Source: Promethearchaeota archaeon
GTDB lineage: Archaea > Asgardarchaeota > Lokiarchaeia > Sigyniarchaeales > SOKP01
Direction of reading: 5' to 3'
Assembly: GCA_016840085.1 (NCBI GenBank)
Contig: JAEOTA010000088.1
Location: 64,001-128,000, forward strand
DNA: 64,000 nucleotides
The notes under the pieces are model-generated. The model saw only the letters and a list, made by a program, of their open reading frames with translations, was not told the DNA's origin and did not search any database. The translations under genes were made by a program, and so were the position numbers. Shown here piece by piece: positions 38,135 through 45,515 of this stretch (position 1 is its first letter; each line of letters begins with the position of its first letter).

Positions 38135-38356
38135 TTAACCACCACCTGGAGTAAAAAGCCAACTAAAAACACCTAAATGTGCTAATATTACTAATAATAT
38201 AAGAGTTACTGAGAGTAGCACTGTACTTATTGGACCAACTTTAATACCAATTGAGCTGTCTTCAAAAAATCTCATTAATCCTGCTCCTCCCATAGGCATT
38301 GGAGCACTTCCACTCCTTCTCTTCTTACGTCTAGATTGAGTACGACGGGATGACAT
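38135..38356 (-). CDS. Protein translocase subunit Sec61beta
   Basis: Basic N-terminus, GAGLMRFFED..IKVGP, single TM ending in LAH. Confidence 0.92.
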   Translation of the reverse strand: MSSRRTQSRRKKRRSGSAPMPMGGAGLMRFFEDSSIGIKVGPISTVLLSVTLILLVILAHLGVFSWLFTPGGG

Positions 38357-38493
38357 TTTGAAATATGTGACTTAAGCTTTTTACACTTATATAGTCTATA
38401 AATAATAATAAAAATATAAAATTTTATCTTTAAAGTTTAAATTTATTATCTAATAAATTTTTATAAATTAATTTTATTTTTTTAAGATAAATT

Positions 38494-40371
38494 ATGACAT
38501 TGAATGCTAATATGTTGAAAAGAGAAAGAGTCCTGTTAATTTCTGTGATGATCATTCTCTCTTTTGCTCAAATCTTATTTATTTCAAATGATTCTGATTT
38601 GAATTATCTCACTCATGATGAAATAAAAGATCCAAGATATTCTGCTAGTGTAGAAGGAATAGAAAATATCATTATTACAAAAATCATTAGAATAGCAAAT
38701 ATTAGTAGGTGTGGTTTAGTAAATTTTGAAGATTATATAACATTTAAAAATTTAAATAATAATCCAATTACATCAATTTTTATAGGAATTCCATTGAATT
38801 ATTCAGATGATTTAGTTTATTATGCAGCTACTGGAATTGATAAGAATACTTTACTAATTGAACGTTCACATTTAATTATGGAAGATTTTGAAATAATAAC
38901 GATATACCTTGACTCTCCTCTTTTACCTTATCAAACAAAATCAGTTATTTTCAATCATCACTATAAAAACCTTGTAACTTATCATATAGAATATACTCCG
39001 GAAGGAACTCCTAATCAATACCATACTTTCAATGGTTTTGTTTATCCTACTTTACCATATAAATTAGAAAAAGAAGTAGATGCACGATTTTTTGTACCAA
39101 GAAGAATGGGCGATTTAGAAGGCGGTTGGGGTTGGGAAGATCCAGAGAAACTTAATGTTCGATATCAGTTCTCATCTATTGAGGACGAATTTAAAGATGA
39201 GTTCATTGCACCTTTTTTAGAAAATTTAAATAATAAAAAAATAATTAATATTTCTTTCTTTCATAACGAATTTACTCGGTTAGATGTAGAGGAAATTAAT
39301 CGAGAAATATACATTTCACCATGGGGGATCATTGAAGTTAAAGAAGATTATACCATCAAGAATTTTGGAGCTATAGATCTTAATTCTTTTACACTAAATT
39401 TGCCACGTTCTGCTAGAAAAATTTATGTTTCAGATAATTTTGGTGAAATCCCATTCTCTAAAACAGAAGGCAATTTAAAATACAAAGAGATAACAATTAA
39501 ATTAATAGAAAATCGAGTGAAATTAACGCCAAATTCTTCTTTTACTTTTAATCTCAGATATTTTTTACCTTTTGAAAACTATTATTCAATGAATTGGATT
39601 CAAGAATCAATTGAAATTGATCTATTAACTTCAAATTTTGAATATTTAGGGAGACAGCAAATTATTAAAATAATTATTGATGGATGTTATAGAATTGATT
39701 CTATATCTGAACCGCCCGAATCAATTGAAAAAGCTAATGGAGCTACTGTTTTAATTTATAGTTCTAATTATGTGTCTCCTCTAGAAACTAAATTTATTCA
39801 ATTTACATTTACACTAGATCTATTTGATTTACTTTTAAGACCTATTATAATTTTACTTTTAATTTCTATAATTCTAACATCATATGTATTAGTAGTAAAA
39901 TTAAGAAAAAAAGGGACAGAATCACCTCTATTAAAAAAAGAATACATTCCTGTAAATGAAATTCGAGAATTCTGTTCTTTACATGAGGAAAAAAATGCCT
40001 TAATCTTAGAGATTAGACAAGCAGAAGAGGATTCAAAACGTAAAAAAATAGCAAAAAAGAATTACAAGAATATTTTAAATAAAAATACTTCAAAAATAGA
40101 TGAAATACAAAAAGAAATAGTTCCATTTAAAAAAACCCTAATAGAAACAAGTGAAACTTTCGAAAATATCGTAAAAAAACTAGATATCTTAGAAGCGGAG
40201 CAAATTAGTATTAAAGACAGCTTAAATCTTTTAGAAGCCCGTTATAAAAGGGGTAGATTACCTTCTAGAGCAGCCTATTTGAAATTATCTGATGATTTCA
40301 ATAAAAGAAGAAGAAAAATAGACAGAACTATTGATAAATTTATTCAGCAATTAAGGAGTTATCTTTTATAG
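38494..40371 (+). CDS. Ribophorin I (OST subunit RPN1/Ost1)-like protein
   Basis: Signal segment; two luminal beta domains incl. REIYISPWGIIEVKEDY (cf. ribophorin I R.I.VSHWG.I.VEE); TM; cytoplasmic helical bundle. Confidence 0.75.
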   Translation: MTLNANMLKRERVLLISVMIILSFAQILFISNDSDLNYLTHDEIKDPRYSASVEGIENIIITKIIRIANISRCGLVNFEDYITFKNLNNNPITSIFIGIPLNYSDDLVYYAATGIDKNTLLIERSHLIMEDFEIITIYLDSPLLPYQTKSVIFNHHYKNLVTYHIEYTPEGTPNQYHTFNGFVYPTLPYKLEKEVDARFFVPRRMGDLEGGWGWEDPEKLNVRYQFSSIEDEFKDEFIAPFLENLNNKKIINISFFHNEFTRLDVEEINREIYISPWGIIEVKEDYTIKNFGAIDLNSFTLNLPRSARKIYVSDNFGEIPFSKTEGNLKYKEITIKLIENRVKLTPNSSFTFNLRYFLPFENYYSMNWIQESIEIDLLTSNFEYLGRQQIIKIIIDGCYRIDSISEPPESIEKANGATVLIYSSNYVSPLETKFIQFTFTLDLFDLLLRPIIILLLISIILTSYVLVVKLRKKGTESPLLKKEYIPVNEIREFCSLHEEKNALILEIRQAEEDSKRKKIAKKNYKNILNKNTSKIDEIQKEIVPFKKTLIETSETFENIVKKLDILEAEQISIKDSLNLLEARYKRGRLPSRAAYLKLSDDFNKRRRKIDRTIDKFIQQLRSYLL

Positions 40372-40399
40372 AATAATACTTCTTTAAGTGTTAAAAATT

Positions 40400-41023
40400 A
40401 TGAAACCATGGCTATTTGATATTCTTGCCTGTCCTATAGATAAATATTTCCCATTAGAATTATATATTTTCTCGTATGAATCTAAAAACGAAGAATTTCA
40501 AATCCTTATTGAAGTGTATGAGAAAAGAGATATTGATCATATTAAAAATGAGAATATTATTGAATTGTCAAAAAAAAATGGTAATCTTTTCTTAAAAGAT
40601 AATATTATCATTGAATTTACTACACTTAAATTTTATATTAATTCGATTCTCACAAGTTTAAATGAAATGGATTCCATTTTTGATAAAAGTGGGAATGATT
40701 TGGCCAACAAATGTTTAAATATTATTAAATCAGTAATTAAACCTAAAATTTTAGAATTTTCTAAACAGCTAAATCTTGATAAACTTGAAAATATTTTTCC
40801 TGAATTATACTTTTTGAATAAAATTAAGTTGGAAATAGAGATAGATTCAGGATTATTATTTTGTAAAAATTGCAATCGATGGTACCCAATTATTGATACT
40901 ATACCACAAATGCTCCCTGATGAATACAGAGATGAGGGAAAAGAAACTGAATTCCTTCAAATCAATAAAAATTTATTGGATGAAGAATTTTTAAACCAAG
41001 AATTAAAACCTTTTAATATATAA
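40400..41023 (+). CDS. Trm112-like methyltransferase activator with long internal insertion
   Basis: MKPWLFDILACP...GLLFCKNCNRWYPIIDTIPQMLPDE; ATG at 40400 (ORF track uses GTG at 40388). Confidence 0.82.
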   Translation: MKPWLFDILACPIDKYFPLELYIFSYESKNEEFQILIEVYEKRDIDHIKNENIIELSKKNGNLFLKDNIIIEFTTLKFYINSILTSLNEMDSIFDKSGNDLANKCLNIIKSVIKPKILEFSKQLNLDKLENIFPELYFLNKIKLEIEIDSGLLFCKNCNRWYPIIDTIPQMLPDEYRDEGKETEFLQINKNLLDEEFLNQELKPFNI

Positions 41024-41053
41024 ATTATAATTGAATCATAAACAATAATCTGT

Positions 41054-41126
41054 AGCCGCGTGGTGTAGTGGCCAAGCATTTAGGGCCTTGAACCCTGAGA
41101 CCACGGTTCGAATCCGTGCGCGGCTA
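41054..41126 (+). tRNA. tRNA-Gln(UUG), intronless, CCA not encoded
   Basis: Acceptor AGCCGCG/CGCGGCT (A1-U72), anticodon arm TAGGG-CCTTGAA-CCCTG, T-arm CACGG-TTCGAAT-CCGTG, discriminator A. Confidence 0.92.
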
Positions 41127-41435
41127 TCCCTTATTATATTATCTTCAATAAAAATAATTATTATATATCTTTCTTAACATTCAAGATAATAGAATTTCGA
41201 TTTTATTATTTAATAAATCTATTATAACTTGGAAATTAGTGACGCTTTAAATGTTTCAAAATAAAATTTAAATTATTTATTTATTAACTCATTTCTATTT
41301 TATTTTTTAATTAGATATTAAATAAAAAATGATTCCCCTTATTTTGTAAAAAATCATTAAAGATTAGAAAAGTTAAATTAACTATTTATTAATTAACTAT
41401 TAAAATCGCTACATTATTTCAATAAAAAAAATAAA

Positions 41436-41879
41436 ATGCAAAATTATAGAAAAAAAAAGATTAAAAGAGTGATGTTATTTATACTTTCTACTGCATTAAT
41501 TACAACCCTGATTATTTCTATTCTATTCGCTGATTTTAATATAAAATTCAACCTCGACGATGATCATGTTGATAATGATGAAGAGTGTAAAATATGAAAA
41601 CGTTCATTAAATGAAAATAATAATATTGAAGATTGGGAAATAATTCTAAAAGAATCGAACAATTATCAAACAAATGAGCTCTTTAAAATAGAAAAAAATA
41701 AAAATGTGGATGAATCTTTTGAAAAAAACCTAGTTAAAGAGGACAGCCTTGTGAGGGTCTTATTTTTCTTACAATCTAATAAGTTTAATTTTTATAATAA
41801 AGATTTAATAACGCTATTAAATTTAAAAATTAATGAACTTTTAGTAATAATAAAACTCTTCATCATTAAACTAGGTTAA
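41436..41879 (+). CDS. Candidate membrane-anchored selenoprotein (CxxU); alternatively a 53-aa peptide (41436..41597) or a pseudogene
   Basis: MQNYRKKKIKR, TM, DDDHVDNDEE-C-K-I-TGA(41595..41597); frame then stays open for 93 more codons to TAA at 41877..41879. Confidence 0.5.
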
Positions 41880-42542
41880 TATAATTTGATCAACCAAAAG
41901 ATAAATTGCAAGAAAAATTAAAATTATTCCACTTAATATTCTTAAATATGGGCGATATTTCAGTCTGACATCATTTATCTTATTTGATTCTAAACCCAAC
42001 CGTATTAATACTAATAAAAATATAATCGGAATAATCATTCCTAATAAATATACAAAGATAAAAACGTAAAGTAAAGGATTATTTTGGAGATTATATAGTA
42101 ATGACAAATAAACTGTGCCAAAACATGGAATTTTAATTAGCACAAAAATGATTCCTACTAAAAAAGCATAAAACCCTGAGTTTTGTTCGATAAAGTCTTT
42201 TAAGATTGTCTTAACTTTTTCTGGTGTTCTATAGATTGTGCTATGTTCCTTTTTACATTCTATTATCTCCCAGATACCGATTATAATTAAAATACCAGCA
42301 AATATATAGCTAGAAATGAAAAAATTTTCTAATAGCTGGAAAAAATAAAGAAAGACAATTGATATAAGAATATATGCTAAAATCATACCTGAGAGTAAAC
42401 CTAAAGAAATGGCTATAAATTTCCTCTTTTCTTCAGTTAAAATAAGGGATGTGCCAAACACACTTAACATTAATAATATACATGGTGTTATGCCTATTGA
42501 TAAACCAGATATAAACGCTATCGCAAAATTAACATCAACCAT
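41871..42542 (-). CDS. ccdA: CcdA/DsbD-type transmembrane thiol-electron transporter
   Basis: About 6 TMs with two PC motifs (GITPCIL, KIPCFG). Confidence 0.75.
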   Translation of the reverse strand: MVDVNFAIAFISGLSIGITPCILLMLSVFGTSLILTEEKRKFIAISLGLLSGMILAYILISIVFLYFFQLLENFFISSYIFAGILIIIGIWEIIECKKEHSTIYRTPEKVKTILKDFIEQNSGFYAFLVGIIFVLIKIPCFGTVYLSLLYNLQNNPLLYVFIFVYLLGMIIPIIFLLVLIRLGLESNKINDVRLKYRPYLRILSGIILIFLAIYLLVDQIILT

Positions 42543-42773
42543 AGTCTCTACTAGAACATTTTTTAAATAAATTTTCTATAATCTCATTTCATTCTTAATT
42601 TTTAAAAATGTTAATATAATTAAGGTTTAAATTTTTAGATATTACATCAAATCTTAATTTCATATTAAATCTGAGGATTTTTAATTTCCCTTCATTATTA
42701 ATTTTCTTGTATCAAATATAAATCACCAGTCTCTTTTCTTTTAAATCTGATACTCTCCTTTCATATTATTGGA

Positions 42774-43964
42774 ATGAGACTGACAGAACAGATTCAATTA
42801 AATAAAACAACTCAACTATCTTATCTATGTCATTTATCTAAAAATCTCTATAATCTTGCCAATTATTATGTGAGACAAGAATATTTTTATTTAGGAAATT
42901 GGTTGAGATATTACGATTTATGGTATATGTTAAAAGAGAAGGAACCATATAAAAAGCTCCCTTCACAAACTGCTCAGCAAACTTTAAAACTCGTGGATAA
43001 AAATTGGAAATCATTTTTCCAATCACTTAAAATCCATAAAAAGCATCCAGAAAAATATTTAGGAGCTCCAAAGCCGCCACGTTATAAAAAGAAAGATGGT
43101 GAGTATATGTTTCTGTTTACGAATCAACAATGTAGGATCAAGGGAGGTTTTCTTTTTTTTCCGAAAAAAACTCAATTCCTTCCTGTCAAAACTCGGATAA
43201 AAAGCAAATTGCATCATGTCAGAATCATTCCTAAAGGAGTGTATTATATCTTAGAAATTATTTATCAAAAAGAAGTAAAAGATTTAAATTTGGATAAAGA
43301 GAGAGTTATTGGAATTGATTTAGGGTTGAACAATATCATAACTATGGTAAATAATGCTGGACTACAACCCGCTATTGTTAAAGGTGGTATTGTTAAATCT
43401 ATTAATCAATTTTATAATAAACAACTTGCCAGATATAAAAGCATAAAGGATAAGCAAGGGATTAGTTCTGCAACAAAAAGAATGCAATGGTTAACTCGGA
43501 AAAGAAATAATAAAATAAATGATATGTTTCATAAAATTTCAAGAGAAGTGATTAATTATTGTATTATCCACGATTTTGGAACGATAGTCATCGGTTATAA
43601 TAAAACTTGGAAATATAAAATAACATTAGGTAAGAGGAACAACCAGAACTTTATCCAAATTCCTTTTGCCAAATTAATATCTCAAATTACATACAAAGCA
43701 GAGTTACTCGGAATTGACGTAATTTTAGAGCCAGAATCTTTCACTTCGAGATGTAGTTTCTTAGATAACGAATCAATTGCCAAGCATGAAAAATATCAAG
43801 GAAAGCGTATTTGCAGAGGGTTATATCATAGTCAAGAAAGAATCATTATCAATGCGGATGTGAATGGCGCATACAATATTCTTAAAAAGGCAGTCCCAAA
43901 AGCCATATCGGCAGATGGGATAGAGGGTGTAGGGTTACACCCATATTCTATTGCGATTTCATAG
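42774..43964 (+). CDS. tnpB: TnpB RNA-guided endonuclease (IS200/IS605 family, solo IS1341-like)
   Basis: KNLYN, QQTL..W.SF, PPRYK, GIDLG (RuvC-I), ESFTSRCSFLD, NADVNGAYNI (RuvC-III); no tnpA nearby. Confidence 0.95.
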   Translation: MRLTEQIQLNKTTQLSYLCHLSKNLYNLANYYVRQEYFYLGNWLRYYDLWYMLKEKEPYKKLPSQTAQQTLKLVDKNWKSFFQSLKIHKKHPEKYLGAPKPPRYKKKDGEYMFLFTNQQCRIKGGFLFFPKKTQFLPVKTRIKSKLHHVRIIPKGVYYILEIIYQKEVKDLNLDKERVIGIDLGLNNIITMVNNAGLQPAIVKGGIVKSINQFYNKQLARYKSIKDKQGISSATKRMQWLTRKRNNKINDMFHKISREVINYCIIHDFGTIVIGYNKTWKYKITLGKRNNQNFIQIPFAKLISQITYKAELLGIDVILEPESFTSRCSFLDNESIAKHEKYQGKRICRGLYHSQERIIINADVNGAYNILKKAVPKAISADGIEGVGLHPYSIAIS

Positions 43965-43990
43965 CTGTGATAAGAGATAGAATAAAATTT
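43880..43990 (+). ncRNA. Putative omega/reRNA scaffold and element right end overlapping the tnpB 3' end (boundaries approximate)
   Basis: Perfect hairpin GGGTGTA-GGGT-TACACCC at 43925..43942, extendable by ATAGA/TCTAT; position typical of TnpB guide scaffolds. Confidence 0.5.
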
Positions 43991-44138
43991 TAATTTCATG
44001 AAGGGAAATTAAAAATAACCTTAAATCTTAAGAATAAAAATAAAAAATTAAAATATATCAAGCATTTTATTTTTTCATCCTCAAAATTCAGAATATTAAT
44101 AATAATTTTATAAAATATTTACAAAATTCTTTTGATCT

Positions 44139-45515
44139 ATGATTCCATTATCGGATTTAAATTGGGGTTTTCTGCAAATCTTATTTTTAATAATTATTTT
44201 TTTAGCGGGTTTTTTTATTACCTATTTTATTCTCCCCTATATCATGAATTTAATGAAGAAAAAAGGTTATGTTGGTTATGATATTCATAAAAACGCTAGA
44301 CCCGAAATTCCAGAATCTGGAGGGCTTAGTATAGTTATTGCTTTTACTGTTACAACAATACTCTTAATGATCTTCTTTATTGATTTTTTTAATGAAATCT
44401 TAATTTTTCTTTTGACAGTTTTACTAGCAGCAGCCATCGGGTTTATTGATGACCGTAAAAAGCTTAGATCACGATATAAAATAATTTTATCTATTTTCAC
44501 GGGAATTCCAATTTTTTTAGCTAATTATAGTAATTTTGTAAATATCTCTTCTCCAATTATTCCTCTCCTTGATAGAACAAGATTGACTATTATTTACCCA
44601 TTATTAATTCCTATAATTATTGCTATTTCTACAAATACTGTAAATATGTTAGAAGGCTATAATGGTGAAGGTTCAGGAACTTGTTTGATAGCTGCTTGTT
44701 TTCTTCTTATCTGTAGTATTATATGGGATTCCACTGAGGGAATATTATTCACTATACCAGTTATCGCAGTTTTAATTCCCTTTTTTATATATAATAAATA
44801 TCCAGCGAAAATATTCCCTGGAGATATTGGAACATTAAGTATGGGTGCGATGATAGCATGTATTATGTTATTTGGTTCACTTGAAGTTGCTACTTTTTGT
44901 GTATTACTAATTCATATATTCAATAGTTTTTATGTTATTTATTCAGTACGAGGTTTTTTGGAAAGTGATAAAATAAGAGAAACAAAAGAAGATATTATTT
45001 TACTCGAAAATGATCAAATTAAAGCCTCTGATCAAAAGGATGCTGCTTTAACTTTACCACGATTAATTCTCGCGAAAGGACCTTTATCAGAACCAGATTT
45101 AGTTAACAATTTCCTGGCAATCTCAATAGTATGTGGTTTATTTTCAATAATCTCAGTTTTATTTACACAATTCACGATAGGGGTTTTAGAAATCATACCA
45201 TTTCTTATCACATCTCTAATACTTATTGCCCCTATTGGATATTTATTATTAAAATTCCCGAGGTTAAGAGGAATAATCGTGTTAATGGTATGTTTATTAG
45301 TAGGGATAGTTATTTTTCTAATGATAGTAGAATCTCTAATTATGCCTCTTCCTCTGGGAAATATCAATCTAGGAATAATTCAACTGCCTCTTAATCTAAT
45401 CGTTATTTTCCTTTTATCTATAGTAGGGATCATAATATGGTATTATGTTACAATTAAGTATTTTTGGTATCAAATTAATGAAATGAAAATAAAAGAAATT
45501 CAAGATTCTAGATAA
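44139..45515 (+). CDS. UDP-GlcNAc:dolichyl-phosphate GlcNAc-1-P transferase (GPT/Alg7/AglH, MraY superfamily)
   Basis: GYDIHK, IPESGGL, GFIDD, NTVNMLEGYNG, YPAKIFPGDIGT; extra C-terminal TMs. Confidence 0.9.
   Translation: MIPLSDLNWGFLQILFLIIIFLAGFFITYFILPYIMNLMKKKGYVGYDIHKNARPEIPESGGLSIVIAFTVTTILLMIFFIDFFNEILIFLLTVLLAAAIGFIDDRKKLRSRYKIILSIFTGIPIFLANYSNFVNISSPIIPLLDRTRLTIIYPLLIPIIIAISTNTVNMLEGYNGEGSGTCLIAACFLLICSIIWDSTEGILFTIPVIAVLIPFFIYNKYPAKIFPGDIGTLSMGAMIACIMLFGSLEVATFCVLLIHIFNSFYVIYSVRGFLESDKIRETKEDIILLENDQIKASDQKDAALTLPRLILAKGPLSEPDLVNNFLAISIVCGLFSIISVLFTQFTIGVLEIIPFLITSLILIAPIGYLLLKFPRLRGIIVLMVCLLVGIVIFLMIVESLIMPLPLGNINLGIIQLPLNLIVIFLLSIVGIIIWYYVTIKYFWYQINEMKIKEIQDSR

Follow-up and report, generated by a model that had tools for sequence, protein, structure and literature searches.

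A probable uncatalogued family of small membrane selenoproteins in Lokiarchaeia, seen through an atypical and possibly weakened copy

Introduction

Single-helix selenoproteins are common in eukaryotes, and the CcdA/DsbD system feeds extracytoplasmic CxxC proteins. In Lokiarchaeota, the genes reported to carry a lokiSECIS are those for SelD, VhuU/FrhA, HdrA, VhuD/FrhD, and PrxL, and the published element consists of AUGA, a stem, an 11-nt loop that is A-rich at its start and ends in AG, and then GA (PMC4989117). AhpF-N-like and DsbA-like proteins are further selenoproteins of this group (PMC11227280). The surveys count seven selenoprotein families in Asgard archaea and 11 in all archaea, nearly all of them recognized by homology (PMC11227280, PMC13188914); their basis was known families, Cys homologues, or one early metagenome. 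The selenobacteriocin TIGR04081 is also listed (PMC13188914).

The DNA analyzed here, referred to as the window, is a stretch of 64,000 nucleotides from a Promethearchaeota archaeon (assembly GCA_016840085.1, contig JAEOTA010000088.1, positions 64,001 to 128,000), whose genome of 4.68 Mb and 29.5% GC has a Lokiarchaeia-like gene content. The original prediction, made from the letters of the window, was a hidden CxxU frame convergent with ccdA. The best explanation as a whole, with a probability of roughly 0.78, is that the gene belongs to a family of small type II membrane selenoproteins not catalogued so far, with two copies in this genome. The family appears to be real and is seen here via an atypical, possibly weakened copy; the lokiSECIS system it uses was already known.

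The Read-Through Frame

The frame starts at the ATG at 41436 on the forward strand, runs to 41879, and contains a TGA at codon 54 (41595-41597); both the frame and its TGA are real. It encodes 147 aa in the window strain if Sec54 is inserted and 53 aa if UGA is a stop. The layout is as originally described. A basic N-terminus (41436-41468, net +6 ahead of the helix), predicted to be cytoplasmic by the positive-inside rule, is followed by a single transmembrane helix (41469-41531, approximately residues 12-32, top 19-residue hydropathy 2.55), an acidic flexible linker (41532-41585, net -6 from the helix to Sec), and Cys51-Lys-Ile-TGA, or Cys51-x-x-Sec54 (41586-41597). An open spacer of 112 nt (41598-41709), coding for a weakly constrained tail, separates the UGA from a lokiSECIS at 41710-41744.

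Past the TGA, 93 codons are open, and the final TAA ends at 41879, giving an overlap of 9 bp with the ccdA stop. The frame is indeed missed by the list of open reading frames, where translation table 11 gives just pieces of 53 aa and 57 aa. Such an open tail is unlikely by chance, as claimed: the expected stop rate is 0.10 per codon, and 4 of 200,000 base shuffles were free of stops. The public gene calls for the family stop at the TGA as well. A promoter and terminator scan at the gene, using bacterial consensus sequences on an archaeal host, remained at chance level, and the RNA run X20 does not cover the window gene and is uninformative on its expression.

Distribution and Architecture of the Family

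Verified family loci with a TGA number 87, from 75 genomes of five genera that all belong to one Lokiarchaeia family; they come from related genomes and are not independent trials. The profile used to find them is driven by the low-complexity helix. After two rounds of profile search, matches were obtained for 88 of the 134 further genomes in that family, or about 89 of 135 with the window genome. With this profile, no verified member was found outside that family among 400 genomes of the phylum, which is not to be read as absence. In the sister family f2, the model R1 gave no match in three genomes and therefore cannot test there for remote members.

Each of the 87 loci has one in-frame TGA, preceded in order by a basic N-terminus, a helix, and a linker that is acidic or rich in Gly. 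The charge ahead of the helix is net positive in 83 of the 87 members and neutral or positive in all, the best 19-residue hydropathy of the helix ranges from 2.3 to 3.6, and the linker of 7-36 residues has a net charge of 0 or below in all 87. A Cys lies within five residues of the TGA, on either side, in 80 members, and seven are without a nearby Cys. In the subfamily of the window gene, Cys precedes Sec (CxU to CxxxxU), while in most others it follows. CxxU, taken at first as the defining motif, is thus one spacing among several: UxC is the most frequent, with Cys two codons past the TGA at 52 of 87 loci, and UxxxC also occurs. Many genomes carry one copy of the Cys-before type and one of the Cys-after type. 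The window genome is among them, with an intact paralog on contig C82 (24200-24520; L020, L149) that has UxxxC, 78 aa, and a perfect SECIS. Gly-Gly is found ahead of Sec in most members and is missing from the window subfamily.

The tail past Sec has 1 to 61 residues across the family, with a median of 20, and 93 in the window copy; it is restricted to one or two residues in six of the 87. L123, L130, L120, L146, and L127 end in this way (GG-U-G-stop type) and are the closest look-alikes of SELENOK/SELENOS ends. Tails are poorly conserved, with dN/dS mostly 0.4-1. The N-terminal part is under purifying selection in the comparison with G024 (dN 0.13, dS 0.45). Past the TGA, 403 codons contained no in-frame stop, whereas the two other frames had 43 and 34; in a held-out set, 10 were in frame against 95 and 23. 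Since the tails vary in length and are weakly selected, the working part would be the helix, the linker, and the Sec/Cys pair. TAA or TAG replaces the TGA at none of the 87 loci in a lineage of 30% GC. L126 and L143 share the family-like helix and acidic linker, have no TGA, Cys, or SECIS, and are possible Sec-less relatives.

A Cys homologue is a usual supporting test for a selenoprotein and lies outside the recoding mechanism proper. No clean Cys homologue at the Sec position was found among the family relatives and database entries. L041 was considered as a Sec-to-Cys homologue and rejected, because its TGT sits in a locally duplicated segment. At this locus (G100 C136:12794-13130), a 36-nt duplication overwrites the TGA region while SECIS and ccdA are kept, by rearrangement or misassembly. 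Trp at the Sec site in public proteins was likewise dismissed: in the two entries checked, the gene caller had translated TGA as W.

Pfam and NCBIfam gave no significant match for 27 members, and the family does not figure among the archaeal selenoproteins listed in the accessible surveys (SelD, FrhA/VhuU, FrhD, HdrA, FdhA, FwdB, HesB-like, Prx-like, AhpF-N, and DsbA-like). No description of it was found in the literature outside subscription papers. Because the family has no Cys homologue or domain, surveys based on homology are blind to it.

lokiSECIS Downstream of the TGA

The relatives keep the TGA and a 3' DNA element conserved where the frame is not. This element has every feature of the published lokiSECIS listed above. 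TGA and AUGA are 40-122 nt apart across the family and 112 nt apart in the window copy, in agreement with the minimum distance proposed for lokiSECIS. Among 60 held-out loci, 57 have the TGA and 56 a covariance-model match; the 57th TGA locus has a pattern match to the element, and the element is found at none of the three TGA-less loci. Two-sided changes are observed at all eight pairs of the stem, and 95% of positions are paired in the 56 held-out sequences, compared with 35-63% in slid controls. Of the eight sites that the model built from the family alone detects in the 4.68 Mb genome, two belong to the family genes, three to vhuD genes, and one each to prxL, vhuU, and a further UGA gene. 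As far as sequence can tell, UGA54 is coupled with a lokiSECIS of the type serving vhuD, vhuU, and prxL in the same genome.

In the window, the element contains all lokiSECIS motifs on the forward strand: AUGA at 41710-41713, the 5' arm at 41715-41722, the 11-nt A-rich loop ending in AG at 41723-41733, the 3' arm at 41734-41740, which is one base short, and GA at 41742-41743. A covariance model that never saw it recovered it as the sole match in the window (43.9 bits, E 2.6e-7), the check that had been suggested with the original prediction; Rfam gave nothing for it. Two SECIS candidates had been proposed, and the one starting with ATGA at 41710 is conserved, while that at 41674 is unconserved and unmatched by both covariance models. 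Their position inside the frame had been regarded as a caveat, which can be dropped: an in-frame SECIS is normal for the clade and is reported for lokiSECIS (PMC4989117).

A CC..GYRA..GG motif lies behind most of the SECIS elements read, including those of vhuD, vhuU, and prxL and one in a genome of another order. In the window, it is located just 3' of the SECIS (41747-41757, forward strand). Its C-G pairs are invariant and its structure is unproven; in a strict hairpin test, a clean 4-bp tetraloop stem was not above shuffles. The motif is not mentioned in the accessible portion of the lokiSECIS literature.

Strain-Specific Lesion in the Window Copy

One stem pair of the window element is broken (41719-41737, forward strand). 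T is present at 41719 where the relatives have G, and the partner C is gone after 41736. This 1-nt deletion shifts the frame, and therefore the last 47 codons, a C-terminal extension at 41737-41879, are peculiar to the window strain. Relatives have stops in the same frame, and their own frames stop in or shortly behind the SECIS. The 93-codon open tail thus stands for the window strain, whereas in relatives only about the first 46 codons are open; nor is the 147-aa product the conserved form, as the closest relatives lack the deletion and have products of about 100-115 aa. Two stops that relatives have in the shifted frame are Leu codons in the window strain, probably by chance combined with a scan that selects long ORFs.

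The Logan contig of the probable source run shows no differences and no gaps relative to the window, so that the deletion is not a slip of the window assembly, although this run does not count as independent. In contigs of another study, the G and the C of the stem pair are both present. In isolation, the window stem has no stable predicted fold; it is the weakest of 85 (median -5.5 kcal/mol) and the sole one with a gap. Its 43.9 bits are close to the 44.8 bits for vhuU and fall short of the nearest relatives by 14-16 bits. The proposal of a membrane-anchored novel selenoprotein decoded via a eukaryote-like SECIS holds at the level of the family, and the damage to the SECIS of the window copy had been overlooked.

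Sec Machinery

As the original prediction anticipated, the components of Sec synthesis and insertion were located in the genome: SelD, SepSecS, EFSec, PSTK, and tRNA-Sec. EFSec and PSTK are both below the curated cut-offs (best matches 235.6 against 242 and 138 against 290, respectively). SelD is represented by two Sec-type copies. These selD genes are arranged in tandem in the region C78:6089-7729, and a longer, different hairpin is found behind each. The tRNA-Sec gene (C32:24373-24528), beside the SepSecS gene, has a UCA anticodon and a 9-bp acceptor stem. It was missed by ARAGORN and fell below the Rfam cut-off because of its introns. There are two of them, the reported T-loop intron and a second one of about 40 nt in the D loop. 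Judged from these sequence comparisons, it is highly probable that the family inserts Sec.

A second uncatalogued selenoprotein candidate was observed in the window genome (G000 C19:107139-107580; L156, L202-L222). It has at least 111 aa, is unmatched in Pfam, and ends in Gly-Cys-TGA-TGA followed by a highly conserved 35-residue tail, and a lokiSECIS lies about 120 nt further on. All 16 loci read share the double TGA and a tail identical in kind. Homologues were found in 117 of 135 genomes, and the candidate sits behind an arsenite-transporter-like gene.

Gene Context and ccdA

A stand-alone ccdA gene encoding a DsbD-type membrane domain (41871-42542, reverse strand; PF02683, E 3.6e-6) is convergent with the window gene and is the sole copy in the genome. 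Upstream of the window gene, the syntenic context includes trm112 (40388-41023) and tRNA-Gln (41054-41126, forward strand). These belong to a cluster at 38135-45515 with sec61-beta, a ribophorin I-like gene, trm112, tRNA-Gln, and a GT4 glycosyltransferase gene, which is conserved in 12 loci. A TnpB/IS200-IS605-type gene (42774-43964) is inserted upstream of ccdA and is missing there in relatives.

The original prediction considered the product a redox partner of CcdA. The two genes are convergent and adjacent in nine genomes of one subfamily, and in G100 they are together in a different context. This relationship is not general. The family occurs in at least nine other gene contexts, from all of which ccdA is absent, and most members adjoin unrelated genes such as TrmB, FGGY kinase, ARMT1-like phosphatase, MFS transporters, and PGK. 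Just 20 of the 135 genomes yielded a close homologue of ccdA, compared with about 89 for the Sec family. At 12 stand-alone ccdA loci, including G107 at the same trm112 locus, neither a family gene nor a SECIS is alongside, and in G030, G026, G005, and G096 the Sec gene is kept at this locus and a close ccdA was not found. A link to CcdA is possible for the window subfamily only. A cis-regulatory leader as the general role was rejected, since the downstream genes vary and the next gene in the window is convergent.

The CcdA of other Lokiarchaeia families carries a signal peptide and a CxxC domain fused to its N-terminal side, in frames of 357-417 aa (12 loci, L190-L201). In the genomes of the family that has the Sec gene, CcdA stands alone with about 220 aa. 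A CcdA without the fused CxxC domain leaves room for a separate acceptor. A thioredoxin fold with CxxC was not found in the window family, which has no domain match and no conserved tail to fold.

Discussion

The following mechanism is proposed. The helix would anchor the protein with the N-terminus inside, and the charges, on which this topology is based, suggest that the C-terminus is directed outward. The acidic linker may act as a flexible arm that carries the Cys/Sec redox pair on the outer side of the membrane, where cycling between selenol-thiol and selenenylsulfide would reduce disulfides or peroxides on surface proteins. The tail past Sec may mostly be a spacer that holds the UGA far enough from the SECIS. 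The Sec/Cys spacing and order drift freely, which argues against a folded active site. An outward redox arm as the function is given even odds. In the window subfamily, the arm could be recharged by the stand-alone CcdA, yet it is doubtful that CcdA is the redox donor of the Sec peptide. A broader picture is put forward tentatively, in which the family comprises Sec-only, lineage-specific, foldless redox peptides tethered to the membrane, with Sec swapped between the pair positions; they would be the first membrane-anchored archaeal selenoprotein and an Asgard parallel to SELENOK/SELENOS, and one subfamily would substitute for the CxxC domain of CcdA.

It is very improbable that all members of the family end at the UGA as an ordinary stop and that the hairpin serves as a terminator or serves another gene. 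The variable, weakly selected tail and the public gene calls are compatible with a stop, but there is no other UGA gene near, the element accompanies the gene in all contexts, stop codons other than TGA never occupy the site, Cys is kept behind the TGA, and TGA-less matches are without the element. For the window copy itself, decay is a serious contender at somewhat below even odds: the SECIS would be dead, the gene would yield a membrane peptide of 53 aa with a single Cys, and the long frame would be accidental. The only gapped and unfolded stem of 85, the frameshift at the same base, the intact paralog, and the loss of the subfamily from this locus in G107 all argue for decay. On the other hand, AUGA, the A-rich loop, AG, the GA core, and seven possible pairs remain, the score equals that of the vhuU element, and the start, helix, Cys, and TGA are intact. 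The chances that the window allele still inserts Sec efficiently are about equal either way. Loss of the SECIS pair would probably lead to less selenoprotein and more of the truncated 53-aa peptide, and the C82 paralog could cover the loss.

Alternatives for the function of the family were weighed against the redox arm. A dedicated extracytoplasmic partner of CcdA, one that took over from the CxxC domain to which CcdA is fused elsewhere in Lokiarchaeia, is a rather doubtful proposition. The fusion outside the family and the stand-alone CcdA inside it fit this idea, as do the adjacency in nine genomes and the pair intact in the different context of G100; nevertheless, the convergent genes are not co-transcribed, the stand-alone ccdA loci have no family gene, four genomes have the Sec gene and no close ccdA, and the two differ widely in distribution (20 against about 89 of 135 genomes). 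The peptide is unlikely to be non-catalytic, that is, a surface selenium store, a trap for soft metals (Hg, Cu, As), or a double-glycine-cut precursor of a Sec peptide. The lack of a folded domain, the drift in Sec position and Cys spacing, the acidic linker, Gly-Gly ahead of Sec in most members, and the listing of similar small bacterial Sec peptides (selenobacteriocin) would suit such roles, whereas one Sec per chain makes a poor store, the window subfamily has no Gly-Gly, the surroundings show no conserved genes for processing or export, and NCBIfam is unmatched. An adaptor like SelK/SelS, with a cytoplasmic Sec on a disordered arm acting in membrane-protein quality control by the translocon and glycosylation machinery, is quite improbable. 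One helix, a Gly-rich arm, six members with Sec 2-3 residues from the end, and the location of the window subfamily near sec61-beta, ribophorin I, and the GT4 glycosyltransferase recall such proteins. Against this, the charges are reversed (basic before and acidic after the helix), predicting an outward C-terminus; PF10961 and PF06936 do not match the family sequences; the sec61-beta context is limited to 12 of 87 loci; and this profile found none in other Asgard groups.

Within a large Lokiarchaeia family, about two genomes in three carry the small membrane selenoprotein, which would give archaea a membrane-bound class of selenoprotein, and this in their group closest to eukaryotes. Its roughly 85 SECIS variants occur naturally, set a lower limit of some 40-55 nt on the spacing between UGA and SECIS, and include one damaged element; they are material for learning how a eukaryote-like SECIS is read in Asgard archaea in the absence of SBP2.

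The new family resembles the known lokiSECIS genes in the recoding signal near or over the frame end, the minimum UGA-to-SECIS distance, and the machinery. Those genes encode soluble oxidoreductase or hydrogenase folds with Cys homologues, whereas members of the new family are membrane peptides with a single helix, for which a folded domain, a database family, and a clean Cys homologue are all lacking. With the CxxC proteins fed by CcdA/DsbD, it shares a predicted outward two-residue redox center on a membrane anchor, and ccdA is adjacent in one subfamily; it differs in having no thioredoxin fold, in the use of Sec, in variable spacing, and in mostly lacking ccdA alongside. The selenobacteriocin TIGR04081 is also a small Sec peptide with Gly adjoining Sec, but it is bacterial and uses a bacterial SECIS, while the new family is unmatched in NCBIfam and has no processing genes. 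The eukaryotic SELENOK/SELENOS (PMC9344019) are similar in one helix, a Gly-rich arm, and Sec without a thioredoxin fold, and some members of the new family end in GG-U-G. The segment behind the helix is Gly/Pro-rich and positive in SELENOK/SELENOS, and 0 or negative in all 87 members of the new family; Sec is second or third from the C-terminus in SELENOK/SELENOS (PMC9344019), and so in six of the 87. The C-terminus of SELENOK/SELENOS is cytoplasmic, while the charges of the new family suggest the opposite, a reversed predicted topology, usually with a Cys partner and a tail of 11-61 residues.
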